A stretch of DNA of 58,826 nt, the filler included, from Jimgerdemannia flammicorona (Eukaryota), in the NCBI GenBank assembly GCA_003990765.1. It is 3 parts of 3 records of this genome, joined end to end, with 100 filler letters (N's around TTAATTAATTAA, not from the genome) between each part and the next. Parts side by side here need not be neighbours in the genome. Positions count along the whole stretch, not along the records: positions 39,291 to 58,826 come from RBNJ01001917.1; 2 more parts are not named here. One strand, written 5' to 3'. Made by a program: the position numbers and the translations under genes. Shown piece after piece: positions 14,676 through 57,186 of the stretch (position 1 is its first letter; the number at the start of each line of letters is the position of its first letter). The notes under the pieces were generated by a model. The model saw nothing but the letters and a program-made list of their open reading frames with translations, had not been told where the DNA came from and searched no databases.

Positions 14676-14682
14676 ATGTGTT

Positions 14683-14724
<42 letters not shown>

Positions 14725-14728
<4 letters not shown>

Positions 14729-21996: not shown

Positions 21997-22035
<39 letters not shown>

Positions 22036-22091
22036 GTCACTTGGACTCCACCTTTATTACTCTATGAATAAGTATACAACATCACCACCCA

Positions 22092-25000: not shown

Positions 25001-25744
25001 GAGGCACCAATGTCCAGGCCCATCCCCACTTCCCCCAAAGCACCCCTGTCCCAAAAGTCCCCAGTGATCCAACCATGGACACCATTCTACCTCCAATAAC
25101 TTCTAAACATCAAGGCCCTAGCAGCTGGCTGTCAAAACCCAGTCGATTCTTGTCCCCAGACCCCCTGCCCAATGTGTATAAACCCTTCTATTCCCCCAGC
25201 ACTCCCTGCCAGCATCTACTAGTGCACTTAGTCATTCTACTTCCTCCCATGCCACCAGTCCTCCACTCCTGCTCTCAGCACCTTGTCCTCTATCTGTCCT
25301 ATCCAACAGTATGTCCCGAACCATATTGAAATCTCCCCCAAGTATATCCACTCCTACCTCCGCAAGTATCCCACTCTCCTGTAAGCCTTTCACCCAATCT
25401 ACTCTCTCACCCCGTACCATGGGGCAATAGCAGGAGCCAACTGTAACTGGCTCCCAGCCTGCCCGAATCCACTTACCCCAGACCAGCCTCTCCCCCCAGC
25501 TCTTCACCTCCTGTATCTCCCCTCTGCCTTTCCGAACCAAAATCCCAACCTTGTCCTTCCAAATCGCCACACCTCTCCATTCCTTTATCCATTCCATCCA
25601 ATCAGAATCATCTTCATACCGGACATCCTGCAAGAGGAAGAGATCGGCCTCCAATCCTTTCATCCAAGTAAAAATGTTCCTACATCAAGTAGTGCCCCAT
25701 AACCCATTCACGTTTAAAGAAAAAATGTTGGTTGTACTGTTCAT
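22092..25744 (-). pseudogene. LINE ORF2 (APE endonuclease + reverse transcriptase + Cys/His C-terminus)
   Basis: MNSTTNIFSLNVNGL, DLFLLQD, GGDFN, SDH, PGENGL, WQPIMLLDMDRK, FLDQEKAYDRV, GVPQGDPLSPILY, FADD; several stops and frameshifts. Confidence 0.92.
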
Positions 25745-25774
25745 ATTGGAAGATGTTATGCTGTCAATCAATCT

Positions 25775-27804: not shown

Positions 27805-27886
27805 GAAACTAGTAGCTTGTCTCCAGAAACTGTGTCGAAAGTGTTGCCAAAAGATTGTGTAACCTGAATATTATCAGAGAAAGATG

Positions 27887-30800: not shown

Positions 30801-31433
30801 CTCCAGGACCATCCTCACCATCACTGCCAAGCCCCAGAAGTACAAGATAGCCACAAACTCCAAGATCGACTTCTTGAGCAATGGAGCCACTACCAGTCCT
30901 GTTATACCATCTGCCAGGTCCCCCTTCCACTTCAGGAACCTCTGCCCCCCCTGTCCATCAGCCATCACATCTCTTTTTTTTCCTGATTTGTCATCACGCC
31001 ACCATCAGCAGTTCTGCCACTACCCCCAGCAGCTACTCCACTTCCTCCACCTCCCACCAGTGAAGGCCCCACTCCCCCAGCATCTCCAGCCTTCTACTTC
31101 CCCTTCTCTCCTGCCTGTCTGCTGCGGGCTCCCCTCGGCCAACCCCCAGTCCTCAGCATGTCTGCAAAGCTCCTTTCCTGCTGCCCTTCAGCCCCCCCAT
31201 CAGTGCTGCTTCTACTGCCCAAGCTGTCCTGTCCACTTGAGCTGCTGAAAGACCCCATCCCCAGCCCATACCCTCTCCCAACATGCTGCCAGTCAAAGGC
31301 CCCAGGTCTGCCTGACCTAGTACACATGTCAGCTTGCTTGCTGGTTGATATTACCTTAATATCTTTCTCTAATAAACAAGTTGAAAGTGTGTTGGAAAAG
31401 TGTGTGTAATGTGAATTGTAGTAGAGAAAGATG
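27887..31433 (-). mobile_element. LINE 5' half (ORF1 + APE), diverged subfamily
   Basis: ORF 29736-30968(-) is an ORF1 homologue; ORF 28715-29200(-) is APE with GGDFN; 5' end CATCTTTCTC at 31433. Confidence 0.88.
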
Positions 31434-31489
31434 TCTGACAATATTCCTAAGTATATCCCACTTGCTTTCATCTAGAACCTTGTCTGTAT
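31434..31489 (-). mobile_element. 56-bp sliver of hAT transposase between two LINEs
   Basis: TCTGACAATATTCCTAAGTATATCCCACTTGCTTTCATCTAGA matches ~13087-13130. Confidence 0.7.
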
Positions 31490-31873
31490 TTTTTTTTTTA
31501 TTTTTTATTTTTTTATTATAGTCACTCAGACTCCTTTCTTTATTAATATACCCATCTATCCTCTATAAAATACACTGTGCCCACCCCTATCTGATCCCCC
31601 TAGGGGGTCTCCCCCCTCCCCCCACCCTCTCTCAATAAAAGACCACTTTGTCATTCACCATTGCCACCCTCCCACTACTCTATTCACAGATCCCTTCTAC
31701 CAGACAGCAATGTTGCCCACCCTGGGGACCCCAACCAACCCACTACCCTGTCAGCAAATCTCTCAACAACTCCTCCCATCTTAACAACTTCTTCTGTATA
31801 CCTATCTATTGCTCCTTCTCAAAAACAAAGAGCCAATGTCCAGCCAGCCCTACCTATACAGCTAAAACTCACC
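31490..31873 (-). mobile_element. 5'-truncated LINE 3' end with poly(A)
   Basis: T-rich tail followed by sequence matching 19650-20000. Confidence 0.8.
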
Positions 31874-32725
31874 TGAAGTCACCCCTCAGGCTATCTCTGA
31901 AGCCTCTACTCCTGAGACCTCTGAAGCTACCACTGCTTAAGCCCAAGCTACTCCCTAAGCCTAAGCTACTGCCTAAGTCTAAGCCACTGCTCTAGTCTAA
32001 GTTACTGTCACCACCTAAGCTGCTGCCTAAGTCTAAGCCTAAGCTTAAGTCTAAGCCCAAGCTGCTATCTAAGCCCAAGCCTAAGTCTAAGCTACTGCTC
32101 AAGCTACTGCCTAAGCCCAAGCTACTGCCTAAGCTCAAGCTATTACTACTGTCTAAGCTACCATTCTAAAAACTAAAGATCAATCTCATATAAGCTGTAA
32201 AAATTGAAAAACTATAGCATACCCTTCTCAAAATCTATCAATAACTCAATCTATTGATTTCTAATCTTCTGTTGAGAAAGAGGTTATTATATAATAATAC
32301 TTACCAGATAGCTACTGCTATAGCTAGATATAGCTGAGATCAGAACTAAGACTGTATATGAGAATTTTGAAAATATATATCAGTTATATATAAATTTCAA
32401 TTAGGTGTGAATTTTAGTTATATGTAAATTTCAGTTATATGTTTATGTATGAATTTTAAGTGATGTATCTTTTAAATAAAAAAATAAAAAACTAATTATC
32501 TTATAATATAAACTACTGAAAATCTCAAATTAATATTCAATTTAATTTGACTAATTCAAATAGGACCTTCAATTCAATTCAAATCAAATCAAATCAGACC
32601 TTAATTTGATTTGAATTTAATTTAATTTGAATTCAATTTTAATATAAAAATCTCCAATTTGATTTAATTTGAATTAATTCCAATTTGATTCAATTCAAAT
32701 TGATTCAATTTATTTGAGAGCACTA
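31874..32725. mobile_element. hAT-related terminal fragment with low-complexity (CTAAGC)n-like internal region
   Basis: Ends ...TTTGAGAGCACTA (TIR) at 32725; 32590-32725 matches MITE 2260-2390. Confidence 0.55.
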
Positions 32726-35941: not shown

Positions 35942-37544
35942 TAGTGAGAGACAAAACCTTATCAATGCTTTATTATTTTTAAATCTTAATCTATTGTAGT
36001 CTAAATATGAATGCTATTAAATCTATATTTTAACCAATAATAAAAGAAGTCTAGAGCTTTTAAATAGTATATATTTTGCTAAATATGAATAATAATTTCT
36101 AAAGTTATAACCCTTTTAGAAAAACTGACCATTGGTAAGATTTTGTCCCTGACATATCACCAATCAGTTTATTGATCATTTCAATATTTAGTATAGCCCT
36201 CTTTTGCCTTATATACAGCAGTAACCCTCCTTGGCATACTCTCAATTAAACCAATACAAACATTCTTTAGAATCCTATTCCATTCCTACTCTACACATTT
36301 CCAAAGATCCTGTATTCCCTTAGAGGGCTCCTTATATGTATTAAGTTGTTTTCTAAGTTGCTACCATAAATGTTCAATTGGATTCAAGTCGAAGGATTGT
36401 ACTGGCCAACTCAATAAATAAATCGAGTGATCAGTGAACCATTGGCAGGCTTTTTTTGATATATGTTTTGAGTTATTATCTTGCCAAAAAATCAACCTTT
36501 TCCAATCCATATGGTAATATTTGATTGTTTCCAGCAATTTGTCATCAAGAATACTCTGGTACAGCTCTGCATTCATGCAACCATCAATCCAATAGATGTA
36601 ACTGACCCTCTCATATGTCATACATCCCCAGATCCACCACTGAATTTTACTATTCCAGTTACATGATACTTATTATGTGGTATTCCTGGCTTTTTCCATA
36701 CCTATTTTCGACCATTAGAGCTAAGATAATTGATCTTCATTTCATCAGAGAGGATGATCTGTTTCCAGTCCTCGATTGTCCAGTCCTTATATTTAAGGGC
36801 AAACTCATAATGAGTCTTAATATATCATTTGAGCAATCTGAGCCTCTTCTGCTTCATGATTGCCTTCAGGCCGGTCCTCTTCAGTGTTCTCTATACCATT
36901 TTTATACTTACAGAAGGTTTGCCATCTTGAAGTCTATCTTGAAGTATTTTGCCAGCTTCTTAGAGTGTTTTTGCAACCTCAGTTGCAGTTTCTGCCTTGC
37001 CTATAATAATCTGGCAAACAACCTATACTTTATTTCAAGCTAAGAATGCATGCGGGCAACCTCCTTTTGGCAGCATAACCTCACTACTGCAGAACTCTTT
37101 TCATATATGGGAAATGGTCATGGTGCCAACATCCATTTGTTTTGCAATCTTACTTGCCAATATACCAGACTTCAGGGCATTGATGATGTGATTGCGACAG
37201 TCAATTGAGATTTTTTTCATTGTAAGAGGTGTAGAAGAAAAAAGTATATCAAAAAAGAATAAAGGGGCAAAGTTTCAGGTGCAGAGCAAGCACAGAGCTG
37301 GAGTTAGTAAATTAAAACTGTTGGAAAAATAGTGGGAGACAAAATCTTACCAATAAGTAGTTTACTTAAAAGGATTATAACTTTAGAAATAATTATACAA
37401 ATTTAACAAAATAAATACTATTTCATTTTAGACCTTCTTTATTATTAGTTAAAATATGAATTTAATAATATTTATATATATTTAGATTATAATAGATTAA
37501 GATTTAAAAATAATAAAACATTGATAAGATTTTGTCCCTCACTA
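35942..37544 (-). mobile_element. Tc1/mariner (DD34E) DNA transposon with ~210-bp TIRs and TA TSD
   Basis: TA|TAGTGAGAGACAAAA ... TTTTGTCCCTCACTA|TA. The empty site CATATAGCATAACTCAC is visible in the paralogue at ~1813-1830(-). Confidence 0.93.
36181..37220 (-). pseudogene. Tc1-family transposase
   Basis: LSDE, FWQDNNSKH, WPVQSFDLNPIEHLW with 34 residues between D and E; ends GYTKY*; internal stops. Confidence 0.92.
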
Positions 37545-37710
37545 TAACTCACCCAGGCTACAAGATGAGTAATAATGACCAACTATAAGTCATTAGGACC
37601 ACAAGACAGACATCTCAAGGAATATAAAAGAAGGATCAAGAAACTGCAGTAATAGCAACTCAACAAGACTCACTAATCCCAAAATAGCTCAAAGACTTAT
37701 CACAAATAAA

Positions 37711-38530
37711 ATATCTGCTGCTCACCAAACCTCAAGATCAAGAAACTACTAAGGCCTCTCAGTCTAAGAAAGGATGTTCCAAGATATCTGAAGAGCTATA
37801 AAGACCTGCACTACAAGGACTCCTAGTGTCAACCTGGATATTAGTGACTCTTATTATTATATTCTCTACTGCTATGATGGAAATAAGAATCACCATTACT
37901 ACTGAATACCTCTAGATATAGTAAGAATATAAAATAGAAAACCTCCTCTACTAGAAATTCCCTCAAGCCAGCCCTCAAGAGCTACAAGATGTTACTTCTA
38001 TAGATATATATAAAATAAGAATAACCAAGAAGATTCATCAGATCTTCAGGCATGCACTATGATTGATTACTAACTTAGAGTATACCAGAGTCTCAGACTT
38101 TAGAGATCTGTCAGCCCACTATATCAATATACTAGAAGTCATGGTTGCTATAGAAGCCCAGTCCACTATTATTCTTAATAGTGATGAGGTAAAAGAGTTC
38201 TAGTATCCTATCCTCCAGAACAACCCAGATCAATTTCTGCAAAGATTGATCTCAGTATTCTAAGGCCCAAGTATCCAGGTTAGACCTCCCCAAGACCCCA
38301 CATTTGTCTCTTATTTTGTAGAAGAGGACCTCATAGACTAGAGAGCTCCTGATCTCCTTGCTCTCCCTGCTACCAAATATGATGACATTATTGGTGATGA
38401 TATCATCTCACACAACATATACGAAATGTGTAATGAAGTATACAAAATGGACAAAACATTTGTAGACCTCATCTTCTTTAAGGATAGTGATGAGGATAAA
38501 GCTCCCATAGTTCTAAACTTTCTGCTCTAA
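37711..38530 (+). pseudogene. ORF-X copy in family A element 2
   Basis: ATA (ex-ATG) start ~85 bp after TATAAAAG; ILQNNPDQFLQRLISVF*GPSI...TFVDLIFF...PIVLNFLL*. Confidence 0.65.
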
Positions 38531-39190
38531 GTTCTTGGTAATACTGAATTCTGCCAGCATCCTTTTCTCATATAATAGTTAATTCTTCTACTGGCATTCT
38601 GATCTTGTGTAACTCAGAATTCTTCTAGTATTCTTTTCCTATACTATTGAAATTCTATCAGTATCTTAAACTTGTATAATTATCTATACTAATACTGGAA
38701 TCTATACCAACAACTATAGTTTTCTGTATTCTAGTATTTTATTTAGTTATTGGAATTTATATTTAGCTTTATATCTTAGCAACCATTGAATTATATTTTG
38801 TATAAATACCCCTCTTATTTTCTTCAAAATAAAGTTAGTTTCTCTTAGTATAATATATATAATTCCTTGCAAGCAATCCAAAGAGATAACAAGACAGTTT
38901 AAAGATAAGATGTTTGAGAACTATAAGACCTTGAAAAGGCACTCTAATAAGAACTTGCTTATAACAAACTTGAGTTAGTCTAAGAGATATACCTTGAAGA
39001 GAATCTGACATATTTGAAGGACTCAGTGACTACTATATGACAATATTTTAATAAACTACTATATTATCTATAGTAGATATATAAAATTAATACTGATAAC
39101 TACTACTATATTCTCTATAGTAATTGAAAAATATATACTTAAAAAAAATTTCTAATAATTTAATTAATCTTTTAACTTTATTTTTTTTTT

Positions 39191-39290
39191 NNNNNNNNNN
39201 NNNNNNNNNNNNNNNNNNNNNNNNNNNNNNNNNNTTAATTAATTAANNNNNNNNNNNNNNNNNNNNNNNNNNNNNNNNNNNNNNNNNNNN
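39191..39290. other. Artificial contig-joining linker
   Basis: N44-TTAATTAATTAA-N44. Confidence 0.95.
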
Positions 39291-39607: not shown

Positions 39608-42600
39608 CTGAGGACAAGACATTATCTTAGGAAAAGCCTGGTTGACCCAGTACAACCCAGACATCAACTGGAGAACCAATGAGGTTAACCTGACCCATGA
39701 GGGCAGAAAGATCACTCTGACACCCCAGGAAGGTACCAACCACCAAGGAATCGAAATCATCTCTGTCATTCAAATGAAGAGACTCTCTCGAAAAAAGGGA
39801 AACACCTACTTCATCTGTACTGTACAAGAAGTCACTGAAGCTATGAGCAGCCCAATTCCAACAGAAGCTCAAGAACTGTTCGAAGAATTCCAAGATGTAT
39901 TCCAAGATCCTCAAGGACTCCCACCCAAGTGCCAAATCCAACATGGAATTGATCTTATTCTAGGATCTGAACCCCCATATAAGAGTATCTACCAACTGGC
40001 TCAACCTGAGCTCAAGACCCTCAAGGATGAATTGACCAAACTACTGGCTCAAGGATACATTGAATCCAGCCGCTCTCCATTTGGAGTCCCAATTCTATTT
40101 GTCAAGAAGAAGGATGGCTCTCTGTGAATGTGTATTGACTACAGAGCCCTCAACAAGATCACTATCAAGAATCAGTATGCCTTGCCCAGGATTGATGAGT
40201 TGCTATACCAAATCTTCAAGGCCAAGACCTTTTCTCTACTGGATTTGCGAAATGACTACTACCAGATTCTCATTGACGAGAAGGACATTGAGAAGACAGC
40301 TTTTTGAACATGGTTTGGACACTACCAGTTCCGAGTCATGCCTTTTGGATTGACCAATGCACCAGCAACATTCCAGTATCTGATGAATGACATCTTTGGA
40401 CCACTCCTCAACATCTGTGTCCTTGTGTATATTGATGATATACTAATCTACAGTGAGATAGTAGAGCTATACTATACCCACCTTAGACAAGTACTGACCC
40501 TTCTGCAAGAACACCAGCTCTATGCCAAGATGAGCAAATGCAAGTTCTACCAAGACCAGATTGAATACCTGGGACACATCATCTCTGCTGAAGGTATCAA
40601 CGTAGACCTCCGAAAAGTATCAGCCCTTAAGGATATCCTTATCCCTACTACCCTCAAGCTACTCCAGCACTTTCTGGGTATTGCCGGTTATTACCGAAGA
40701 TTTATCTAAGGATACTCTACTATTGCAGCCCCATTGACCAGCCTGGCCCATAAAGGAGTGAACATCAAAGCTGAATGGACCCCCGAATGCACTCTGGCTA
40801 TGGACTATCTCAAGAGACTCCTAACCGAGGCCCCAGTGCTAATTGCACCTGATCCTACCAGACCATTCACTCTGACCACAGATGCCTCTGACATTGCTAT
40901 TGGAGTAGTGCTCAGCCAAGAAGACCGCCCAGTGGCCTACCTTTCTCAAAAGCTCAAGCCAGCTGAGACCCGGTATACCACCCATGAGAAGGAACTCCTG
41001 GCTATCGTCACTGCACTCCAGGAATGACGCCATTTCCTCCTAGGATAGCTATTTGTGGCCTACACTGATCACCATGCACTGAGGTATATTCACACACAGC
41101 CCATGCTGACCCACAGACAAGCCCGCTGGATGGAAATCATTGCCAACTTTGATATGGAAATCAAGTATATCCCAGACAAAACCAACCATGTGGCTGATGG
41201 TTTCTCCAGATACATGGAAGATGAACTTGTCTTCATGGTTGAAGTAATTGGAGACCTTACCTAAATAATCAGGAATGGCTACCAGCAAGACAGCCCCCTG
41301 ATGAATTTCCTTCAATTCTGCCAAGACCCAGAGGCTGAGGTTCCAGAACCCATGAGGCAAATGGCCAAGAGATTCACCTACTGTGATGGACTTATCTACA
41401 GGGACCATGACAGAGTGGTTGTACCCAACAATGATACTCTGCGACTCAAGATCATGCAGGAACTCTATGATACTCCTGCAGCAGAACACTTTGGTTTTGA
41501 AAAGACCTACAACCTCCTCTCAAGAGAGTTCTACTGGCCAAAGATGACCAAGGATATCAAAGACTTTGTGGCCTCATGCGAGATATGCCAAAGGTTCAAA
41601 AGTGGTAACAAGCTACCAGCAGGACTCCTGCAACCCTTGCCTATCCCGAGCCACAATTGGGACCAGATTGCAATGGATTTCATTGTCCAACTCCCCAAGA
41701 CCAAGGCAGGATGGGATGCCATCGTGGTATTCGTGGACCGCCTAAGTAAACAAGCCCATTTTGCACCCACCAAGACTACCGCTACAGCACCAGAGATTGC
41801 CGAGATCTTTCTCAACCAAGTATTCAGGCTACATGGCATGCCTAGCACCATTGTATCTGACCGAGATGCCAAGTTCACAAGCAACTTCTGGAAGGCATTT
41901 TTCTCCCTCCATGAAACCAAGCTGAAGTTCTCTACTGCCTACCACCCTCAGACTGATGGTCAAACCGAGCGAACCAACAGGACCCTCAAACAGATGCTTA
42001 GCATCTTCTGCTGTTACAAGCAAAATGACTGGGACAAGTACCTAGCCCATGCTGAGTTTGCCTACAACAACAGTCAGCAAACCTCCACAAAGAAGACTCC
42101 ATTCTTCCTGAACCATGGTCAACACCCAAGGACCCCAAGTACTACTATGAAATCAGCAGTCCCAGCAGTCCAAGATCTGGCCGAGACCATTTCTAACCTC
42201 ACGTGAATGACAAGAGATGCTCTCATAGAAGCACAGGACTACCAGACCAAGTACGCGAACTTGAAGCGAAGAGAAGCCTCCTACAATATCAGTGACAAGG
42301 TCATGCTTAGAACAGACCACCTCCACCCAGACACCCTGGCACAACAACCAGCCAAGAAACTCCGTGCTAGAAGAATTGGACCATACAAGATCGTGGAAAA
42401 AATCAGTGAAGTCAACTACAAGTTGCAACTCCCCCACAATATCCGAGTACACCCAGTATTCCATATTAGCCAATTGGTGGACTACCATGAGAACCCATTC
42501 CCCGAGCGTACAGTTCCACCACTACCCCCAATTAGGATCAATGATCATGAGGAATTCAAAATTGAGGAAGTACTTGACCACAAGGTCTGCAAGTATCCCA

Positions 42601-42755
42601 AAGCAGTCAAGCGCCTTTTCCTGATCAAGTGGAAGGGTTATCCCACCCATGATGCCACCTGGGAAAAAGAAGAAGTCCTGAAGAATGCACGCGAAGCCCT
42701 CCAGGACTACATGGAAACACTCACCCCCCAGCAAAGGAAGGAACTACAGCTCTAA
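39608..42755 (+). pseudogene. pol: Gypsy pol (protease tail, RT, RNase H, integrase, chromodomain), with in-frame stops
   Basis: ILGKAWL; MPFGLTNAPATFQ; VYIDDILI; TTDASD; YTTHEKELLA; EHFG...CEIC; IAMDF; VSDRD; YHPQTDGQTERTN; IGPYKI; IEEVLDH...FLIKWKGYPTHDATWE. Confidence 0.95.
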
Positions 42756-43394
42756 GCAGAGGAGCAAACAGCAAGCAGAAGGATACCACATATTTTTTAT
42801 CTGGAAACATATAACATTGAACATTGTGAAAAAAGGAACACTATGGATAACCAACAAGAAGATACCTGAACAACAGAACAATCTAGTATAGTACAGCAAA
42901 ACGCATTTGAACAACTCAATTTCACGCTATCTGTATCATCTCCGCTGGATGATGATGGACACTTCATGTGAAACTTAGGAAAGCCGACAATGTCAAAACC
43001 AGTCTAAGTCCATCCACATGACAGATATTGTTACTAAAGAATTGCCTCGGATTACAAGAAAGTCTATTTCCAAGAGGTTCGAACCCCCAGCCGCGACAAT
43101 GGGAGCCCTCGCCTTAGACAAGGATGGCCAGTCCTCGCAAATGCGCCAACCAGACAAAAAAAAAGTGGACCAAGACCTGTTAACCCTGTGTAACCACAGA
43201 CAGGTGATGAGATCTTTGAAATCAGGATTTCCTCATGTGACCAGCACATGCTCCGCTTATAGCACAGGTCATGCATTTTGCCAGAAAGTGTGACCAAAGG
43301 AAGATCACATCAGACGGGTGAACAAGTATAAATACCCAAGGCAAGAATACCCCACAACTCTCATCCCCTCTTCCTCACAAAAAGAAAGACAAGA

Positions 43395-44201
43395 ATGCCT
43401 ACCACCCGCCACCAAACTGCCCGCCATAGCCAGCCCCTCCCAAGCCAGGTTGACCGCCTCTTTGGACACATTCAAGTTGCTATCCAAGGAAGGAACTGCC
43501 GCTCAGAGGCCCTTGACCTCTCCCATCAGGACCTAGGACACTATGTCCTCAACTGCCGTGAAGTCATTGACAGAGCCTATCTTGCCACCAGCCACCTAGA
43601 GATCTGGCATGAATATGAGATTGGCCATCAACTCCTTCAACGTGCAAAGGGCCTGCCCACGGACCAAGTCTCTGACTGGATTCACCTAGACAGGCATGAG
43701 CAAAGACTTGCCAAGAAGGTCCATCAAATCATGCACCATATACCCTTTGCAATCCCCAACCTCAACTATGTACAACTGAAGGACTTCCAGAACCTCTCTT
43801 TCCCTGAGGTCGATGAACTGGAAATCAAGGTAGCCCAAGAAGCCAACTCCTGGATCACCCCCAAGTCTACTGACTGCGAACCCTACTGGAGCCCCCTCCT
43901 GAATAACAACCCTGACCAATGGCTCTAAGGCCTCTCTGACCTCTTTGAAGGACCACCGATTCGAATGGATATCCCCAGGCATGAAGATCAAGAGCCCTAC
44001 TTAGATGGCCCCAACTGTATCAGATGGAGAACCCCAACACCAGCACAAAACCCAGTATGAGAACCATTTGCAGACCTCATTGACTTCTCCATCCTGGACA
44101 ATGAACTACCAGTAACCACCCCCCCTGCCCCTGAGGAGGATTCCCCACCTTTCTCTCCCCTAGTTCTCAATTTCTCAATCAACGAGGACGTTGATTTCTA
44201 A
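43395..44201 (+). pseudogene. Extra sense ORF ('ORF-X', 268 codons, two internal stops) between pol and PPT
   Basis: The frame runs from ATG 43395 through TAA 43926 and TGA 44058 to TAA 44199-44201, overlapping the PPT. TATAAATA ~70 bp upstream. Homologues at 845-1665, 2854-3777 and 37711-38530. Confidence 0.75.
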
Positions 44202-44212
44202 GGGGGGAAGGA
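44200..44212 (+). promoter_or_regulatory. Polypurine tract
   Basis: AAGGGGGGAAGGA directly before TGTAATA. Confidence 0.9.
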
Positions 44213-45055
44213 TGTAATAGAACGAGCGAACAGATGGGACGCGACGAACGACGAATGACGAACGACGAACGACGAGCGATCACGTGACCCGGCGAGCGAT
44301 GACGTCATCATACGAACGATGCGCGACATATGAATAACGAACGAACAAACGATGCGAAACGACGCGGAAAACGATATCCAGCTTATCCCCAACAATCGGC
44401 GCCGCAGCCAGCACCGCAGCAACAGTTGCCACAGCAGCTGATCATTGCCTAGTAATTGAGGTCTTGATCACAAAGTTGTTTTTGCCAAAAACCACCTGAC
44501 AAAGGTCGCGATCACAGACCTCATTATAGTTACCAAATTAGTCACTCATACTTAGTCAGAAATCGCGGACCAACTTGTATAAATACCCCCCAGTTTCCAT
44601 CCGAAATAAAGCAGTTTTAGTTCAGTCCTTGATACAAGAATCAAGTCCCCCCCACACACACACATTCCCCTGAGTCTTAGTAATGACATCTAAGTGACTC
44701 TAGTGTTTCTGACTAAACTCCAGAAGTCTAGCTAACTTCTGCCAGAACTGAGACCGGTATATAAATCCCCAAAGACTTAAGTAAACCCATTGAACCTGAA
44801 TTCCAAGGCGAATTCAGTCTGTACTCAACAAAGAACAAGACCCTCGAAATAGGACACAAGAGAAAGACCTTTAAAACAGAAGGCAAACCAGAAAGACCTT
44901 TGAAAGATAAGGCACTACCACTACAACTACTTTAAGCGAGTGCTTCCTCAAACTGAAGGCTTCTTGGTACACATTGTGTACTAAGTCCCTAAGTAATAGT
45001 CCACTTCCCTAATTATCCAAAGGATAAGAGAGGGATAGAAGTGAGAGTTATTACA
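44213..45055 (+). repeat. 3' LTR (843 bp)
   Basis: TGTAATA...TATTACA inverted ends; GTATAAATA at ~44577 and AATAAA at ~44605; CpG-rich U3. Confidence 0.9.
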
Positions 45056-48000
45056 AGGAGGAAGATTTATTGGAGGCGCTGGAGGAGCTGGATGGGGCTG
45101 TGGAACGGCGAGCTAAGGCCTGGAAGACTTTTGAAGAGTCGACGCTCCTGGAGGTGGTGGATGGAAAGAGGATTCGAGTGGACAAGATGCAGTGGGAAAG
45201 GGCTCAGGGGTGGAAGAGGCAGAAGGATTTGCTGGCTAAGCTGGGGGGTGGACAACAGAAGGATGCGAGCATGAAGACAGGTACAGAAGGGGCCAGAGCG
45301 AGTGTCTGGGCTGGTGAGAGGAGTGGGAATGAAGGGGCAGGGTCAGGGAAGGCTAAGGAGGTGAAGATTAGAGACCTATATGCTGATGGCACCTTGGAGA
45401 TTTGGGATGTCAGCTGGGAGAACTCCCCCACCCCTTCCCCTCTAATCAGGTGGGGCCCGGCTTCCAGGAACAAGCCTGGGGAGGATGTGACGATGCTGGG
45501 AACCCAGCAGGTGAAATTCAGCATTCCGGAGGTGTTGGATGGGGACCAAGTAGTGGCGGCAGGGGAGGAGGAACTGGTGGATGTCCCGGAGGTGTGAGAT
45601 GAGGATACGAGTGTGGGAGTGGACACCACAATGCTGGATGGAGGGAGGCCGGCGACCCCTGGTGGAAAGGAGGTGGGGAACCTACTTTGGATGTGCCGGA
45701 TGATGAATAACCTGGTGGCAGAAGAGCTGGGGGAGGTGGACTTGCATAGGATGGGTGACGAGCACTGGATGAGAATTTTGCAGGGAGAAGGAGTGGCGAT
45801 GGCGCTGAAGGCGGAAATTCTTGTGGTGTATCTGGAGGAGGAAGGGTATGAAGTAGATAAGGAGAGGGAGGCAGAGTTGGCGGTGGTTGCTGGGGAGAAG
45901 GCTGAGTACTGTTGGAACAGGTGTCATGGGTTGCAGCTTTGGCAGGAGGCTTGCATCGAGTACTGAGAGGAGTTTGAGGAGAAGGCTGATGAGGAGATAA
46001 ATGAGCTGTTGGCTGGACTGGAGGCTCAGAGGGCTGAAGAGGAGGAGGTGATGGCTGAACATAATCTGGACACGGCACAGGAGGAGAGGGGCATGGAGCA
46101 GTAGGAATTGATTGAGAACCAACTGTATTTTTATTATGAACAGTACAACCAACATTTTTTCTTTGAATGTGAATGGGCTAAGGGGTGCAGTTAGACATAG
46201 GAACATTTTTCTTTGGTTGAAGGGATTGGAGGCCAATCTCTTCCTCTTGCAGGATGTCAGATGTAAGGATGATGCTGATAGAATGGAATGGACTAAGGAA
46301 TGGGGTGGTATGGCGATTTGGAACAGCAAGGTTGGGATTCTGGTTCGGAAAGGCAGAGGGGAGATAAAGGATGTGAGGAGCTGGGGGGAGAGACTGGTCT
46401 GGGGTGAGTGGATCTGAGCAGGTTGGGAGCCAGTCACAGTTGGCTCCTGTTACTGCCCTGTGGTGTGGGGGGAGTGTGTAGATTGAGTGAAAGGGCTCCT
46501 GGAGAGTGGGATCCTTGCTGAAGCTGGGTTGGATATGCTTGGAGGAGATTTCAATATGGTTTGAGATGTACAGCTGGATAGAACTGATGGAGGATGGGGT
46601 GCGGAGAGCAGGAGTGGAGGGTTAGTGACATGGGAGGAGGTTGAAAGGCTAGGAGCACTGGTGGATGCTAGTAGGGAGTACTGGGGGGACAGGAGAGTAT
46701 ATACACATTGGGCTGGAGGTCTGGGGACAAGGATTGACTGGATTCTGATAGCTGACTGTTGGGGCCACGATGTCTGGAAGGCGATAGAGGTAGAATGGTG
46801 TCCATGGTCAGATCACTGGGGCCTCTTGAGATAGGGGTGTTTTGGGGGAAGTGGAGATGGGCCTGGAATTTGGCACCTGAATTCCTCCTTGTTGGATGAT
46901 GAGGTCCGGTGGGAGGAGTGGGCGAAAGACATTCAGCTGAAGGTAGCGAATTGGTGGCAGGAAGGGGCCATGATTGGGGTTTGGTGGATGAGGATGAAAG
47001 AGATGGCCAGAATGTATTGGAGCGAGGTTGGCAGAGTGGCTGGGAAGCAGCGAAGGCAGAAAGTGTGTTGGGCTTCTACTAGATTGGCTAGGCTCCTGGA
47101 GGAGTGGGTGAGACTGGCTGCGGTGGAGGGAGAAGAGGATTGGAGAATAACAAGGGTGAGGATGGAGGTTGGGGAACTGCAACAGGTGCTGCGGGAAGAG
47201 GAAGAGTCAAGGGTGCAAGGCCTGGTGGCATGGCTTCATTGGCAGGGGGTGGAGGAAGGGGAAAGGCCTTCCAAGTTTCTCACAAGGATACTTTGAGCGA
47301 GAAGAGTACAGCAGTGGTGGGAAGGGGTACTTGACTTGGATGATGTACTAGTGCATAGTGTACAGGACATCCTTGGAATGCTGAAGGCGTGATGGAGTGG
47401 ATTGTGGAGTGAGGAGGAGGGTAGGGCAGATGTTACAGCCATTGACCAAACATTAGAAGATTGGCACCCACCACGAGCTGAGGGACTAGGTGACCTGGTG
47501 ATGCCTGTAAAGGAGGATGAGATCTACCAGGTTCTTGCCGCGACAGTCTCGGGCATGGTGCCTGGGGAGGATGGCCTCCCCTGGGATTTCTGGAAGCGAA
47601 TGGTTGGAGTCCCGGGCATATTGGGGGAGTTGACAGTACTGTATGACTCTATATTGCAGTCAGGGAGATGGGTGGGGGAGCAAGACCTTGGGCTGGTGAC
47701 GCTGCTTTATAAGAACAAGGGAAGGCGAGAGGATTGGAAGAACTGGCGGCCGATAATGTTACTAGATATGGACAGGAAGTTGGTGACTAAGATGGTGGTC
47801 GCAAGGCTACAGAAGGTGGCCCAGCAAATTGTGGGTATTGAACAGAGGGGCTTCATAGGGGGTCGGCTCATTAGAGATGGTATGGCCTGAGTACATGGAG
47901 TTATTGAAGGTGCTCGAGCCTGTGGACTGGATGGGCGTCTTGTCTTCTTGGATCAGGAGAAGGCTTATGACCGGGTGCGGCGAGTCTGGCTGGCAAAAGT

Positions 48001-49869
48001 ATTAGATAGAATTGGAGTTCCGGCCCCATTTCAGTTGGTGATGGTCAGCCTACTGGAAAGGAGTAGGGCTGTGCTCGTGTGCAATGGGCATCGAGGGGTG
48101 GCTTTCCCTCTGGGTAGGGGAGTGCCCCAGGGGGACCCACTGTCTCCCATTTTGTATGCTCTTTCCTTGGAACCTCTTATGGACAGGATTTGGCAGAGGA
48201 TCATGGGGCTCTCTATCTATAGAGTTGGCTGGAAGGTTGGAGCCTTTGTGGATGACATGGTGGTTGGTTTGGGAGTGACTGCGGATGTTGAGGAGCTCCA
48301 GAAGACAGTGGAGTGGTATGAGGCGAACTCTGGGGCAAAGCTGAATTGGCATAAGTGTGAAACAATGGTGCTGGGCAATGGCTTGGTGGGCGGAGAAGTT
48401 ATTAGAACAATTGTCCCCACCGGAGAGGCAGTGCGGTACTTGGGCATCTATTTGTCGGTCTATGGGTCTGTTTTGCCCAGGCTGTGGTGGGAGCAGAGAA
48501 TTGGAATTTGGGAGGAGGACCTGCAGGGTTGGGGGGGTAGACACTTCTCTCTGGCAGGAAGGATCTCAATTTTGAATGTTTACTGGCTGCCAAAGCTATG
48601 GTATTTGGCCTATCATCTGGACTTCCCAGCCTGGGTGGTGAAGAGATTAGTGAAGGTGGCCAAAGGATGGGTTTGGGCTGCAGATAGAGTCAGATTGGTT
48701 GGGAGACTCTGTCCCTACTGGTGGCAAGAGGTGGTCTTGAGCTGATGGACTTCCCCAAGAGACTACACTGCTTGCGGGCTTGGTGGCTGAGGAGGGCGGC
48801 AGAGTTGCATGGAGGGGGCTGGGTCCCCTTGCTGCAGAAGATATGGGAGAGGAGGACATCACCTAGAGGCTTGACTGGTGATCTTCTTTCATTAGTTGGG
48901 CTTCAGAATACTGCGCAACTGAGATATAAAGGCTTCTGGTGGGGTATAGCCAAGGGGATACACCGCATTGATATTCGCTGGCAAGGGGATGAGGGGGAGA
49001 GGGCTTGGGGCCTGGTGATGTGGAGATGAGATAGCATTCTGCTGGGAGGCATGCCTTTACTGGAGTTCAACATTCGTGATGGCATCGAATGCCAAAGGGG
49101 ACCGGGCCAGGATCTGTGGCCTAGTGGTTGGCAAGGAGTTGGAATTGGTGAGGAGTGGGACTGGCATGGAGTTTGGACCTGGAGTGCCGCAGTGAAAATT
49201 TGGATGCCGCTGAAGTACTGGATAGTCTGGAAGCATATGCTGAGGAGGAATGTGATGCTTAACTTCCGCTCAGGACACCTTGTTGTTGGGGGCTGCTTTG
49301 ACTGTGAGGAGTGCCATAATGTAGAGCAGGAAGGAGGATTGGTACAGATGCCGGAACATTGGCTAGGGGAGTGTGAGGTGTTGGGAGACTTTTGGCAGGC
49401 CATTGGGGACCGCTTGGGGGTAAGGCATAGGGGTGATGATGTATAAGGGAGGTGGGAGGACCTGAGGGATCGATTGATAGGAGGGGTAGGGAAGGAGTGG
49501 ATTACGCTAGGCTGGGCGTTGGCTATTTGGGTTGGGCTGGCTGGCCACTGGCTATTTGTATTTGAGGAGGGGGAGCGACGGAGCTTGGGGAGCCAGTTGG
49601 CAAGATGGCAGTTCCTTATGGAAGATACCTTGACAGGCTGGTGGTGTGGCAGGGGGGTCAGAGGCGCTACTTAGTGGTGAAAATCTGTGGTCAGAGTGGT
49701 GGAAAAGTTGGAGTTGTTGGTGAAAGGGTGGTCTTTATACATGAAGAGGTGGGGTGGGGCCCCCCGATGGGGATCGGTTAGTGGGTGGGGATATTGTATA
49801 CTTATTCATAGACTGGTAATATAGACGGAGTCCAAGGGACTATAAAAAAAAAAAAAAAAAAAAAAAAAA
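45056..49869 (+). mobile_element. L1-clade-like LINE (ORF1 C-terminal half, ORF2 46136-49781, poly(A))
   Basis: Same APE/RT motifs as 22092-25744; A tail 49844-49869. Confidence 0.92.
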
Positions 49870-50796: not shown

Positions 50797-51209
50797 TAGT
50801 GCTCCGAATGAGTCAATTTGAATCAAATCCAGATTCAATTTGTTACATAATGGTTTGATCTAAATTAACTCAGATTAATCTGAATCACCCCATCTGAATT
50901 GCTCCATCTGAATCACCCATCCAAACCACCCCAATCCGAATCACTCAATCCAAATCACTCAATCCAAATCACTCAATCCAAATCACTCAATCTGAATCAC
51001 TCAGTCTGAATCCTCCAATTTAAATCCTCTAATTCAAATTCTCTAATTTGAATTCTTCAATCTGAATCCTCATCTGAATCCTTCAACTGAATCCTCTAAT
51101 CCAAATCCTCCACATGACTCATATGCTAGATATATCCACAATACAATACACACACATGTATATACATATACATACACACATACACATATACATGCAAACA
51201 CACAAACAC

Positions 51210-53832
51210 ATATATCAACAGATCAGTCTTCAACAGTTCACAGTACTGATGATGCTTCAAGTCAAACATCCCTAATAGTTCCACACCTTCCATGTAATCC
51301 TCACTCCAAAATCTAACAATATTGTACTAAGATAGGAGATGATGTTGTTTGTAATTATTATAGGTAAAAAATTAAGATGCACCTATTGACACTTTTTGTT
51401 TTGACACATACATGATATTATTTCATCTACTCCTATAAACTGTATCAGCCAGAAGTTCAAAATGCTTGGTGGTATAACTTTGAACATGAATCAATACATA
51501 AAAGACAAGCACTCTAACAAAATCAAAATGAACATGGAGACAAATAAAATTGACATCCAAGCTGTGGTAGGTATGTTTATCTGATTGCCCAACCATTTCT
51601 ATACCAACAATGCCATTTAATCAAAAATATTTAGCCATACTCTTTAGCAGAATTTCGAAATCGGCTCATTCGCTAGATTGTGTGCACAGACCAGTCATTC
51701 ATAACTATCGAGAGTGATCAATTGCATAGCATCTTTGGTCTTCTCAAGCATGATTTATATTTGCCAAGTGCCAATACTATTCACAAAGATGTCCTGGAGG
51801 CCTATAGAAAGGAGCATGATAATCTCTGCCAGACACTTTAGGTAAAATAAGAGCAGTACCATGACCTTTGCAAGCTGAATTATATAAAAGAGCTCACCAA
51901 TTTAACCTCACATTCAATAAGCAGAATTTGGCAGGCAAAATTTTGTTTATGATCAACACATAGACATCCCTCAATGCAATTTCATTTCTGGGTATTACCA
52001 GTCATTAGATTGACCTTGATTGGCAGCTTAAATTTCTCACCCTCGACTTCATCAAACTTGCTGGCCCTCATTTTGGAGATAATATTACAGATGCTTTTAT
52101 TAATTGTATCCAGGAGCTTGGGATCACAACCAAGGTAAAAAAGGGGGGCTTACCATCAGGTTGGCATTTTGAGGGAGGTCTTAAAATAAACCAGATTTTA
52201 TTGGTTATTTATTTTTACATAAATATGCCAACTGAATATTTCAAGTACAGATTTTGGCTATTATAATAGACAATGCTACAAACAACTCAATATTTTTCCA
52301 AGTTTTAGCAGCTAGCCTCAAACAGGAAAATGTGGCCTTTAGTATAGAAAGCTGTCATATATGATGCCAGGCCCACATACTGAACCTCACTGTTCAGGAT
52401 TATCTTACGTACATAGACAAAACATCCGAGAGAGGAGGGGCCCTGAGTATAGTTTCCAAGCTACGCAAACTGGTTGTGTTGGTCTAATCATCCCCACAAT
52501 GACAAGACAAATTCACTATACAGTGTAGGGCAATCAGTTTAGCTCTGAAAGAGCTCATATTGGATGTCTGTATATGTTGGAACTCAACATTTGCAATGAT
52601 TCAGTGCATGCTGGAGTTTGCTGTAGTATGCATTCTTTTTTTCTTTGGTCAGCTGAAGTAACATGTTTCAGATAACTGAAGATTTATTTTTTAAAAAAAA
52701 AAAAAAAACAAAAAAAGCCAATAGATTCAATGGTGGCTGCTGATAAGGAAATACAGGCTGAGGCTCTAGGTGAAAGTGAGTGGGACATACTTAGGAATAT
52801 TGTCAGAGTTTTGGAAGTAAGTGGTGATTGCTCTGGCTCTACACTTGTTTGTCAGCCTCCACAGTCATTTTGTCTGCCTCTGCACAATGCAACACCTCAC
52901 TACATATAACTGCCAGTGTTTTGATGATTGTATGAAGGATATAGTCAAACAAATGACCCCGACAATAAGCTTGGTAATACCAGTATACAACCTTCTGATT
53001 GACTGGCTAGAGGACAAGCTCAAGGACAGTTGTGGTGATTTACGGTTGAGCCTGGATTAGAGAGATGCCATGGAGGTTGCTCTTAGCAAGCCTAGAAAAT
53101 ATTACTTCTAAACAGATACCACCATATACTCAATCAGTACAGGTATGTCAGTGTTGGTGTATGACCATTGCTCCTTCTAAAACAGAGGAACCTCTGCAAA
53201 AACTCACTCTTTTTTTTTCTTTGAACAGTGCTGGACCCATGCTTAAAGCTACAATACTATAAAGATCAGGGCTGGGAGCAGCACTTTATTGAGAGAACCA
53301 AGTGGGCTGTAATCAAAGTGTACTGGAAAAACTACATGCCACTACAAGGTTCTGGCCAAAGTCTGGATGAATATACCAAGAGATTCCTCCTGTCCCACAT
53401 TTACTTCAGCAGAAAGAGGAAGAGGGAGCCATTAGTAGAAGAGCTGCCATCAATAGACAATCTTACCATTTATCTCACCAGTGACCATGTGATACTGCTG
53501 GAGGGTGCAGAGGTGCTCAACTGATGGAAGGTGGCTTGTCAGGCAGGTTGTCAGGTGGGTTGTCAGGCAGGCATTAGGCGAATTTAACCCACCAATCTAA
53601 CTACCACTCTACCCACTGCTCTACTTACTGGGGCATGCAGCTGCATCAAACAGACTTCCCTAGTCTATGTGGTATGGCTTGGGACTATCTGGCAATTCCT
53701 GCCTCCAGTGCTCCTGTCGAGCAGGTGTACTCAGATGGGGTGGACCTCATTGCCCCAAAGAGGTGTACACTGAATGCTGAGACAATCTGGGCATATATGA
53801 GTCTGAAGTCTTAGTGGGGCTCAGGCCACTAA
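51210..53832 (+). pseudogene. hAT transposase with introns (BED finger, DDE core, C-terminal dimerisation domain)
   Basis: SKI(W)QYC..VVC (BED); (W)TSLNAISFLGITSH; LAGPH; IIDNATNN; WNSTFAM; LDPCLK; MAWDYLAIPASSAPVEQVYS. Confidence 0.9.
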
Positions 53833-53939
53833 AATTTGGTGAGTCCTGGGAGTTCGTGGATGAGTTGGTTGGCCTTGTGGATTATTTAATACCTTTCAAA
53901 AATAATAAAAAGGTTAAAAAATCTGAGGACTCAGCCCAG

Positions 53940-54780
53940 AGTTTGCGGCCCAAGTGGGGCAGTGGTTAGTAGAGAAGGGAGTATATAATATTTATAGCCC
54001 TCTGCTAGCAGCAAGGGGCAGCCCTGAGCTGTCAGTGCCCTGGCAGGTCAGTGGGTAGGCATGGGGTTGGTGGAGGGAGTACACAAAATCTACAGCCCTC
54101 TACTGGCAGCAAGGGGCAGCCCCAAGCCACAAGTGTCCAGGTCAGGGGGGTTGGTGGAGGGGGGGTTGACAGAGGGGGGGGTAGGTGGAGGGAGTGCACA
54201 AAATTTGCAACTCTCTGCCAGCAGCAAGGGACAGCTCCAAGCTGTCAGCACCTGGGTCAGTGGGCAGGATCAGTCAGAGGGGTTGGTGGGTGTGGGGTCA
54301 GCAGAGAGAGTGTACAAAATTTGCAGCCCTATACTGGTAGCAAGGGGCAGCCCCAAGCTACAAGTGTCTGGGATGGGCAGGGTAGGTGGAGGGAGTATAT
54401 AAGATTTGCAGCCCTCTGCCAGTAACATAGGGGCAGCCCAGAGCTGCCAAGGAGTCCAGGACAGAGGGTACTTCTGGTGGTCAGAGAGTGCTTCTGGCAG
54501 TCAGAGGGTATTTTTGGTGGTTGAAGGGTGCTTCCAGTGGTCGAAGTCCACTACAGATTCAGGCCCCATTGCCAGTTTGAGTCTCATGGGCACCCTGGCC
54601 AATAGGGCCCTATATAACAGCTAAGCTAGTACTATAGAAGAGGTGTTCGGCCTAACCCCCTACATAAGACTGCCTAACCTACACAAAATGACTGCCCAAC
54701 CCACACAAAATAACTGCTCAACCCACACAAAATGATTACAAAAGACTGCCTATCTCTCATGAAAGATTACCTAACCCTCA
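53940..54780. repeat. Internal tandem arrays of hAT copy 2 between the two convergent stop codons
   Basis: About five ~100-bp units (AAATTTGCAGCCCTCTGCCAGCAGCAAGGGGCAGCCCCAAGC), then ~20-bp units at 54460-54540 and 54650-54780. Confidence 0.85.
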
Positions 54781-56782
54781 CAAAAACTGCTCCACCTGTC
54801 AGTCCCAGGCCTTGATGAGCCTATCATCTGTTGTAAGTATGAGGACTGTTGTGTCCGAGCTCTCCTCAAAGGTGATGGTGCCATAGTGGTCATGTAGTTG
54901 GAAGAGAACAGCCATGTTGGCTGCAAACAGGACTCTGAAACCATAGGTGAGGTCATACTAGACTCCTCTGCTATCCTCCCAGGTTGGGCCCTTCCTTTTC
55001 AGGACATAAAACATTACTAGGGTAACATTGTTGTCTGTGTGTGTAGGCAGAGAAATGTTGCACCTGACATATTCTGATATGACATGAGCATATGGTTGGG
55101 TGAACCCTTGGCTCAGGACCTCATACTGCCAGGCTGTGCTGGTGGATACCTGCCCTTGGTCCAGCCCTGGGAGCCCTAGCTTGGAAATCTGCCAAAACAG
55201 ATGACAACCAGTCAGTCCTTTTTATATATGGGGGGGCAGAAACTCCCCAGGCTGCAGCACCCCAAAAAAGCAGAGCTCCTCACCTCATATAGCATACTAA
55301 ATTGCACCAAGAATGTATATACAGCTACACCAAGATCACCACTAAGCTGGCCTGCCATATGCTCTATCAATCTACTCAAAGAACCCCAGATTATAGCTGC
55401 CATTGCCACACAGGCCATGTCATACTTACATGTAGTTTGCTCTTCGATGGCACTTCTAAAGTTCTGGTAGGAGTACAGAATCTTGTGTATCCCTGAAATT
55501 ATATCAAAAAAGAGTATGTCGGCAAAGAGTGTGATTTATCTGGAGAGAAGGAAAAAAAAGAGAGATGAGTGTGGGGGATTTCAGAACTTCAGAACTCACT
55601 CTTTACCTGTATTGCAGTATACTCAATTCCCATCCAAACCCCCCCTCCTTGCTTTTTTCACCCCCTCTTTCCTGCCATCTGGTATTTGATGCAATCCTCG
55701 CAAATCTTGTTAATATGGTGGTAAAGCTCATCACCATAGAGATTCCTTACCACCATCATAACCACCTCTCTATATTCATTAATAATGATATAGTTCTCTT
55801 CATCATTGGCTACTCCTGCTGGCCAATGGACCCCTTGGTCAAGAACTATTAGCTCTGATTCGAATGTAGACCCCCAAGTCTTAATAATGATGCTGGTATT
55901 GCTCATGCTGAACATCTTGCCCTCGAATTTCTCTATTTGATCAGATACTGGATATGGTTAAACTCAGGTAATTTTGAACTCTCCTTTCCAATGGAACTGA
56001 GCTCTGATCTGAGAGACCAAGATAAGTATGTAGATGGGTTGCATGCAGATGGGTTACATGTAGATGGATTGCATATGGATGGGTTGCATGCAGATGGGTT
56101 GCATGTAGGTGTGGGTGTTTTTTAGGGGAGACCACATAAAAAATGAAATTAAATAAAACATAGAGATGGGTATTTTAGAAAAAGAGCATAAGTGAGTGAG
56201 CTGCATGCTGACAAGTTGCACGAGTTGCACAAGATTGCTCACGAAGGCTTGCTTCTGTTTCTTTTGAGACCTCCACCACATGATGTATTGACTCAACAGT
56301 TTAGCCACCAAAGGCATACTCTGCAACATCTGCCAGCCTTTCTTCATCTTGATCAGATGTTGTAAATAAAGTTGGCAGATCTCGCCATAGAGCTGTGGAC
56401 CCTAAGAAAAGCACAAGGTGAATTGGGTCATGCTGGGGAAATTTAAATAAATACAAGTAAACAAGTGGTAGCTGAGTGAGCAACCTATATCTACTATTGG
56501 CTGCTCCAAAAAGGCTGCCATGTACATAGCTGTGAGGTCTGTGAATTCTGAGGTCCAAAGGGCTGCCATGAGTTGTTGCCAGAATTCTCCCTTATCCCCA
56601 CCATTGCTACTGCCATCACCATCACCACCACCATCACCATTGCCATCGCCACCACCATCACCACTGCTGTCACTCCTTTGGCTCTCGATGAGCAGCTTGT
56701 ATGCTGCCCATATGAGAAAAAATCTAATATTGTCAGCAGAGAGTGCATTTCTACCTCAAATACTCCCTCTTTTGATGATCAT
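54778..56782 (-). pseudogene. hAT cargo gene: putative TET/JBP-like 2OG-Fe(II) dioxygenase (~5 exons, ~500 aa)
   Basis: Phase-0 GT..AG introns at 55606-55540 and 55283-55189. Last exon reads ISKLGLPGLD...CNISLPTHTDNNVTLVMFYVLKR...SRGV(W)YDLTYGFRVLFAANMAVLFQLHDHYGTIT...DRLIKAW. HxD at 55041-55033; H-Y-G-T at 54888-54877. Family call by motif recognition only. Confidence 0.65.
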
Positions 56783-57186
56783 TGTAGGGTGAAAAATGAG
56801 TAAACTGGACCAACATATGAAATTAAGGGCTGCTGTTTTGTTTGCTCATGATGCAGTAGGAAAGAATAAAGAAAAAAAACAAAGAAAAGAGAGGGAGCAA
56901 AGAAAAAGAACAAAGAAAAGAGAGGGAACAAAAGGAAAGAGTGATGTCACCAAAGTGCAGCAGAAAAAAAAAAACAAGAGTGAAATAAACAAAAGAAAGA
57001 GTGATGCTACTAAAGATTTCAATCTAAATGGATTAATCCAGATAGATCAATCTGGATGGATCAATCTGGATCAATCTGGATCAATCTGGATCAGATCATG
57101 AGACCAATCCAAGTTGATTCGAATCTATCACATGACAAACCTGAATTGAATCTCATCTGGATCAACTCCATCTATTTGGAGCACTA

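Follow-up and report, generated by a model that had tools for sequence, protein, structure and literature searches.

Organization of element A and its third open reading frame

We analysed a stretch of 58,826 nucleotides (nt) from Jimgerdemannia flammicorona (assembly GCA_003990765.1), hereafter the window, which is a nest of decayed eukaryotic retroelements whose GC content varies from 28% to 54% in 2-kb steps. One of them, element A, carries an additional open reading frame (ORF), here called ORF3, between pol and the 3′ long terminal repeat (LTR). Three further ORF3 copies lie elsewhere in the window: B1 and B2, which belong to one family, and C, which represents a third.

All features of element A lie on the plus strand. 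Pfam searches identified a 5′-truncated pol at positions 39612–42755 (stop codon 42753–42755) with a reverse transcriptase domain (RVT_1, 40308–40706), the integrase domains Integrase_H2C2 and rve (41265–42203) and a C-terminal SH3_Tf2-1 and Chromo module (42207–42752). A 639-nt spacer (42756–43394) follows, which contains a TATA box, TATAAATA, at 43327–43334. ORF3 itself occupies 43395–44201. Its terminal stop codon overlaps a polypurine tract (PPT), AAGGGGGGAAGGA, at 44200–44212, and the 3′ LTR (44213–45055) starts directly afterwards with TGTAATAG and ends with TTATTACA, giving inverted TG...CA termini. Within this LTR are a TATA box (44577–44588) and an AATAAA signal (44605–44610). Homology of the neighbouring element begins at 45055/45056, exactly where the LTR ends. 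In contigs from four public sequencing runs (X1, X2, X3 and X8; contigs only, n = 4), depth rose 3- to 5-fold from 44484 onward in all four. Because the LTR bounds are well defined, ORF3 belongs to the internal region and ends on the PPT, outside the LTR. With its reverse transcriptase, integrase, C-terminal chromodomain and TG...CA LTR termini, element A is a chromovirus, that is, a chromodomain-bearing Ty3/gypsy element.

Upstream of the 5′ limit of element A (about 39612) lie a run of N and a piece of another family. The window holds two pairs of 44-base N runs, at 19546–19645 and 39191–39290, the second of which adjoins the truncated 5′ end. Within the window, element A has no gag, protease or 5′ LTR, and the splice-donor region therefore falls outside it.

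ORF3 of element A consists of 268 codons and a stop. Its ATG (43395) lies 639 nt past the pol stop and 68 nt past the start of the TATA box, and its terminal TAA is at 44199–44201. Two stops interrupt the frame, at codon 178 (TAA, 43926–43928) and codon 222 (TGA, 44058–44060). A preliminary description of this DNA had reported a 268-codon sense frame some 640 bp after the pol stop, ending at the PPT and carrying two internal stops; this observation is confirmed. The codon-178 stop is private to this copy, since relatives have a sense codon there, and the first base of the codon differs from the window in all X1, X3 and X8 contigs and in about half of the X2 depth. The ORF3 copy in element A is thus broken and dead. 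Its location between pol and the PPT and 3′ LTR, on the same strand as pol, fits the class of sense 3′ additional ORFs (aORF-3S), and so does its presence in the window in four copies from three families.

Homologues of ORF3 in the window and in public data

To locate further copies we searched the window with the ORF3 frame by tblastn. The search revealed matches in B1 (1665–1099, minus strand; expectation value (E) 2.1e-26, 35% identity over 189 amino acids (aa)), in B2 (37886–38350, plus strand; E 7e-20) and in C (2878–3453, plus strand; E 4.7e-17). These values lie far beyond chance and sustain the earlier claim of homologues in two other families; the conserved motifs quoted for them are likewise present in the copies. 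A six-frame profile search of the window returned the same four copies and no others. Copy B1 (850–1665, minus strand) lies in a repeat unit at 325–1820; its frame is interrupted by 12 stops and shifts near the C-terminus. Copy B2 (37711–38530, plus strand), in a repeat unit at 37544–39050, has a mutated start codon, a frameshift near 37876–37886 and 10 stops. The two are 86% identical at the nucleotide level over 1.5 kb. Copy C (2854–3777, plus strand) has two internal stops; the LTR behind it carries its TATA box at 4113–4124.

Between B1 and B2, 188 of 199 differences are transitions, and A follows at 54 of the 87 C/T sites whose next base is unambiguous. The CpG observed/expected ratio is near 0 for B1 and B2 and 0–0.4 in all repeat blocks of the window. 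From these base patterns the decay of the repeats appears to be of the kind left by repeat-induced point mutation, methylcytosine deamination or both.

Some further features of copy C were noted. A 126-bp tandem duplication (88% identity, 3770–4021) spans the end of its ORF3 and the start of its LTR, and no purine tract is visible past its stop codon. Two family C database proteins, P0008 and P0010, both start at a methionine directly after the in-frame TGA at 3055–3057, and this stop may therefore be common to the whole family.

Outside the window, a HMMER profile built from four sequences and run against 1.84 billion representative proteins gave nine matches at E ≤ 1e-3, four of them at E ≤ 1e-30. 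We took one, a 698-aa repeat protein with nine matched stretches, as a false positive. The eight credible relatives are short predicted proteins of 56–342 aa. They include an intact protein of 342 aa named only 'hypothetical protein' (P0007), an intact B-type protein of 247 aa (P0006) and a C-type protein of 200 aa (P0008). A profile search, a check that the preliminary description had proposed, thus reaches intact relatives. The same all-length search revealed neither a fused form of ORF3 nor a host-like homologue.

A scan of metagenome contigs yielded one relative among 188 pattern matches, and scans of viral and genome contigs yielded none among 78 and 65 pattern matches, respectively. The metagenomic relative, L001, is a 1535-bp soil contig from the Joint Genome Institute (JGI). 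It contains an intact ORF of 291 aa with TATAAAAG 80 nt upstream, and the stop codon of this ORF overlaps a purine tract, AAGGAGGGAGGA, followed by TGTAATAAG. The layout of TATA box, ORF, PPT and TGTAATA is as in element A. Intact relatives of 291 and 342 aa are 50–59% identical. Searches that use a protein word index were nearly blind to the family (one match among 19 candidates, and two among 1993). In the ESM Atlas, ORF3 matched an unnamed cluster best (0.92) and, at 0.89, a cluster of 259 aa that includes Mucoromycota; as the recognition value (2174) is under the 2300 mark, we treat these matches as a lead only. Sequencing runs with members of the family comprise soil and root metagenomes and one organism run. 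The ORF3 family is very rare in public data. Literature searches returned no description of the protein, which is weak evidence given that a sequence cannot be searched for in text.

ORF3 evolves under constraint at the protein level

We compared ORF3 of element A with its intact relative L001 by the Nei–Gojobori method. The ratio of non-synonymous to synonymous divergence (dN/dS) was 0.19 over 261 codons (dS 1.52) and 0.14 over the first 214. Since dS (1.5–1.8) is near saturation, the ratio is rough, yet it is far from 1. The dead pair B1/B2 gave a dN/dS of 0.54. By blastn, the DNA of A and L001 aligns in two places only, the ORF (68.8% over 686 nt) and the junction of stop codon, PPT and LTR start (83% identity over 42 nt); the spacers of the two do not align. 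In a partial table of single-base differences between the public contigs and the window, 7 of the 10 listed within ORF3 fall at third codon positions. These comparisons indicate that ORF3 is under purifying selection at the protein level. The gene is conserved in at least three element families. The preliminary description had proposed a selected protein-coding accessory gene, against which a dN/dS of about 1 would speak; the proposal stands, with a ratio of 0.14–0.19 against L001 and intact ORFs of 291 and 342 aa.

The ORF3 protein is predicted to be soluble, helical and acidic-tailed

Four intact or near-intact members of the family were searched against Pfam, which returned no family even at E ≤ 5, and a sequence profile search of the PDB gave one match only, at E 0.92. 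We considered whether ORF3 might be a fragment of gag or pol and rejected this: its profile reached at best E 0.027 (6.5 bits) against the 120 best related polyproteins, and none of the 120 best pol relatives carries an ORF3-like sequence. Structure searches gave no credible match either, with a best E of 1.1 for Foldseek against the PDB, a best E of 0.1 for Foldseek against a viral library and a best Z of 4.0 for VIA-align against 48,161 chains. The two AlphaFold2 models used have mean predicted local distance difference test (pLDDT) scores of 46.2 and 52.8. As the models are weak, the empty fold searches can be taken neither as a sign of a new fold nor as proof that no known fold is present.

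In the better model, residues from about 21 to 186 are helical and include a long helix (50–86); beyond them lie a small hairpin at 203–215 and an unstructured region at 221–291. The ORF3 protein is accordingly modelled as a helical domain of about 190 aa followed by a disordered acidic tail studded with hydrophobic residues. The N-terminal domain is near neutral (isoelectric point (pI) 5.6–6.4). The tail has a pI of 4.1, with 11–26 D and E residues versus 0–4 K and R, and 5–33 F, W, Y, L, I or M. Conserved blocks of the family read W-H/Q-E-Y-E-I, A-K-K-[IV]-H-Q, D-N-P-D-Q-x-L-Q-G-L...F-E/Q-G-P-x-I and I-x-W-R-x-P. Near the C-terminus, the motifs F-x-[DN]-L-I-x-F and P-x-[VI]-L-N-F occur in all seven A- and B-type sequences that have the tail. 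P-x-V-L-N-F resembles the HP1 chromoshadow-binding motif PxVxL, and F-x-D-L an Atg8-interaction motif; we discarded both, as neither consensus is fully matched.

By hydropathy, no transmembrane-like segment was found in six members (maximal Kyte–Doolittle 19-residue mean 0.39–1.05). We rejected an identity as envelope protein (Env) because ORF3 has no hydrophobic segment and, again judged by hydropathy, no signal-like N-terminus, and is acidic and soluble. The earlier characterization of the product as not Env-like, helical with an acidic tail and of no recognized family therefore holds, and the product is neither a described domain nor a piece of gag.

Relatives of the element A integrase

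Among the best 120 integrase relatives listed, the named ones come from Closterium, Planoprotostelium, Nannochloris, Haematococcus, Chara, rice and other plants. These named relatives from green and charophyte algae, an amoebozoan and plants are 38–51% identical, and one fungus was noted among the 120. Closer relatives in the same set, at 53–61% identity, are unnamed metagenome proteins. The nearest ESM Atlas clusters of the integrase are mostly from Streptophyta. The preliminary description had placed ORF3 in a 'fungal-type chromovirus'. Its observation was confirmed, and of its interpretation the selected accessory gene and the chromovirus stand, the latter on the Pfam domains; 'fungal-type' is tentative. 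The nearest named pol relatives are algal, amoebozoan and plant, the decay of B1 and B2, which resembles repeat-induced point mutation, leans towards a fungus, and the Mucoromycota cluster matched by ORF3 is a weak lead.

A candidate promoter upstream of ORF3

A TATA-like box precedes the start codon in all five copies inspected, at a distance of 68 nt in A, 80 nt in L001, 88 nt in B1, 88 nt in B2 and 61 nt in C, where it reads TATTTAAAG. This agrees with the earlier suggestion that ORF3 has its own TATA box. In element A, the box and its flank form a 12-mer, GTATAAATACCC (43326–43337), that is identical to the LTR core promoter (blastn-short E 0.013) and that we regard as the candidate core promoter of ORF3. 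Allowing up to one mismatch, this 12-mer has five matches in the window versus 0.35 expected. One is the site upstream of ORF3; the LTRs of A, B1, B2 and C supply the other four, and the core promoter is hence common to all three families. The leader AAAGACTTAC..A.AAA..ATG is shared by L001 and the B copies. A TATA-like box in five of five copies, together with a 12-mer identical to the LTR core, favours an internal promoter.

We looked for enhancers common to the spacer and the unique 3′ region (U3) of the element A LTR and dismissed them, because only the 12-mer is shared. The first 170 nt or so of this U3 (44213–44380) consist of CpG-rich ACGA/CGAACGA-like repeats, the rest of the element being CpG-poor. 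They contain the palindromes CACGTG(AC) and TGACGTCA, and contig depth in the public runs is lower across them than over the remaining LTR.

Interpretation of ORF3 and its expression

We conclude that ORF3 is a real accessory gene of a chromodomain-bearing Ty3/gypsy lineage, a sense additional ORF between pol and the PPT that is kept by purifying selection; the fuller reading that follows has a probability of roughly 0.55. On slightly better than even odds, the gene would be transcribed from its own TATA promoter some 60–90 nt upstream. The resulting subgenomic mRNA would start at this promoter and end in the 3′ LTR, and ORF3 expression would thereby be uncoupled from that of gag-pol. Several points weigh against this proposal. 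Physical linkage of pol and ORF3 is seen in element A only, B1, B2 and C beginning about 120–155 nt before their start codons. Outside the 12-mer, similarity between spacer and U3 of A is at chance level (eight shared 8-mers versus a shuffle mean of six; 131 of 500 shuffles reach eight), and since the B copies are AT-rich, their TATA boxes carry little weight. In A, L001, B1 and C the ATG is preceded at 25–45 nt by a pyrimidine tract followed by AG, from which a spliced mRNA can equally be read. As to function, the N-terminal domain is not basic and direct DNA binding is thus not suggested, family C has neither tail motif and carries an acidic tail rich in W and F instead, and the AlphaFold2 models are weak (mean pLDDT about 46 and 53), with no fold match backing any function.

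The pyrimidine tract and AG are what an Env-like mode of expression of the same accessory gene would call for: a spliced subgenomic mRNA from the 5′ LTR promoter with its acceptor just before the ATG, the TATA box being incidental. Splicing is described for sense additional ORFs such as that of barley Bagy2 (PMC7264820). The near-constant placing of a TATA-like box in all five copies and its 12-nt identity to the LTR core promoter in A count against this route, which we consider possible and clearly the less probable one. A different objection concerns what the gene belongs to. B1 and B2, whose flanks are unrelated, begin at the same point, some 155 nt ahead of the ATG, and both stop at the LTR end, and recognizable C sequence also starts about 120–160 nt upstream of its ATG (around 2740–2860), as if promoter, ORF3 and LTR formed a separate entity, a parasitic or satellite fragment or a recombination product, nested beside pol in A. 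That three fragments (B1, B2 and C) have ORF3 and an LTR without pol is an odd coincidence. In element A, however, composition and similarity run on from pol to ORF3 without a break, and in X1, X2 and X3 contigs cover the bins of pol, spacer and ORF3 at like depth (X8 has four empty bins). Upstream of ORF3, B and C show no LTR-like sequence, and a purine tract with TGTAATA right after the stop is the typical internal 3′ end of an LTR element. A separate entity therefore seems improbable to us. We also tried to explain the B and C units as LTR–ORF3–LTR deletion derivatives and rejected this for the same lack of LTR-like similarity upstream of ORF3.

Lack of any functional gene, with ORF3 as a chance or decaying frame, or with its conservation owed to a nucleic-acid signal in cis or to a host gene captured recently, is close to refuted. 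The two stops of the A copy, the 10–12 of the B copies and the one that family C apparently shares would fit decay, but dN/dS is 0.14–0.19 at a dS of 1.5–1.8, the intact ORFs have diverged to 50–59% identity, no host-like homologue was found among the representative proteins, and three diverged families carry the frame. Among possible functions, the main competitor of a regulatory role is a helper in replication or particle assembly, acting as chaperone or scaffold on Gag, integrase or RNA. A chaperone role is proposed for some sense additional ORFs (PMC7264820), and a long helical domain with a disordered acidic tail could suit a scaffold for basic partners such as nucleocapsid or integrase. 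The protein is nonetheless acidic overall and shows no nucleic-acid-binding features, and separate transcription would be odd for a stoichiometric particle component; we hold the helper role to be unlikely.

Our tentative preference, at odds well below even, is a soluble regulatory adaptor that raises transcription or opposes silencing. The composition of the tail is as in acidic activation and recruitment modules and its motifs are like short linear docking sites, which favours such an adaptor. The N-terminal helical domain (about 190 aa) would dock on a partner, and the disordered tail, studded with F, L, I and W and bearing the two motifs, might recruit host machinery in the manner of an acidic activation domain. 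As a result, the element's own transcription would be raised or its silencing opposed, in trans for all copies of the family. 'Transactivator or anti-silencing factor', as the preliminary description put it, is a guess. More doubtful still is the idea that the lineage is a 'complex' retrotransposon with a trans-acting regulator of an unseen family and an internal promoter sharing the LTR core. Here host transcription or chromatin factors, drawn in by the acidic motifs at the C-terminus, would switch on the LTRs or lift heterochromatic silencing, and the element would be the retrotransposon counterpart of foamy-virus Tas or herpesvirus VP16.

Comparison with known additional genes

Gag and pol are usually taken to suffice for an LTR retrotransposon. 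To our knowledge, a function has been assigned to only a minority of additional ORFs, and plants are the main source of those on record. Vicient and Casacuberta 2020 (PMC7264820) treat additional ORFs between pol and the 3′ LTR as a known, heterogeneous class, the sense ones being mostly Env-like with transmembrane segments. ORF3 agrees with the aORF-3S class in position, orientation and occurrence in many copies and families rather than as a single transduced copy, but differs in having no transmembrane segment. PMC11728184 reports plant chromovirus additional ORFs at the 5′ end, and about 4000 plant additional ORFs of which most have no known domains. Fungal Gypsy elements mostly have one or two ORFs according to Novikova et al. 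2010 (PMC2864245), where the Figure 3 legend names an 'add. ORF with unknown function' for some of them; these are alike to ORF3 in position. A new protein within a known class makes ORF3 a new protein family of additional ORFs. It is unusual in being non-Env, placed 3′ in a chromovirus and, as the TATA boxes suggest, probably self-promoted.

Other genes in this slot offer partial parallels. Foamy-virus Tas (Bel1) is encoded past pol, as an additional gene with an internal promoter. ORF3 resembles it in its place after pol, a possible internal promoter and an acidic, hydrophobic-rich C-terminal tail, and differs in that no sequence or fold similarity was found and no DNA-binding region is apparent. 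Caulimovirus ORF VI (P6/TAV) lies directly after pol, has its own 19S promoter and encodes a trans-acting, multifunctional product. Like ORF3, it is the next gene after pol, here in a relative of Ty3/gypsy elements, and its separate promoter and subgenomic mRNA would be a further parallel if ORF3 is transcribed on its own. However, nothing links ORF3 to translation control, and as none of the four members searched matched any Pfam family at E ≤ 5, ORF3 is not a sequence member of P6/TAV. Retroviral and errantiviral Env occupy the same slot between pol and the 3′ LTR, whereas ORF3 has neither their hydrophobic segment nor a signal-like N-terminus.

Taken from sequence comparison, ORF3 is a well-supported new accessory-gene family, and its role is something we infer only. 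The family amounts to a handful of sightings among billions of predicted proteins, soluble rather than Env-like and under clear purifying selection. Should ORF3 regulate transcription or silencing, regulatory genes of the sort found in complex retroviruses would be within the evolutionary reach of simple retrotransposons, and there would be a way into the question of how such elements survive where the genome heavily mutates its repeats.

Other repeats of the window

Scans of the window for tRNA genes and Rfam families returned none of either. On the minus strand, positions 7778–8568 hold a distant Gypsy pol with an integrase zinc finger and RNase H. Downstream of it on that strand, a 54-nt stretch (6207–6260, minus strand) matches the TATA region of the C LTR at 91% identity. 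Between the two there is apparently no room for ORF3, and no ORF3-like sequence was detected there. A retroelement family of about 4.8 kb is repeated at 14725–31900 and 45056–49869, with a GC content of about 50% and a very pronounced strand bias, the GC skew being −0.38 to −0.50 on one strand. When 13 long frames of this family were scanned, the sole Pfam match was a reverse transcriptase (23318–24298, minus strand) and no integrase was found. A 6-kb repeat family, for which no coding domain was noted, occurs at 8745–14725 and, inverted, at 51160–57049 with 76–80% identity; it contains arrays of units of about 100–116 bp at 11586–11990 and 53953–54368.

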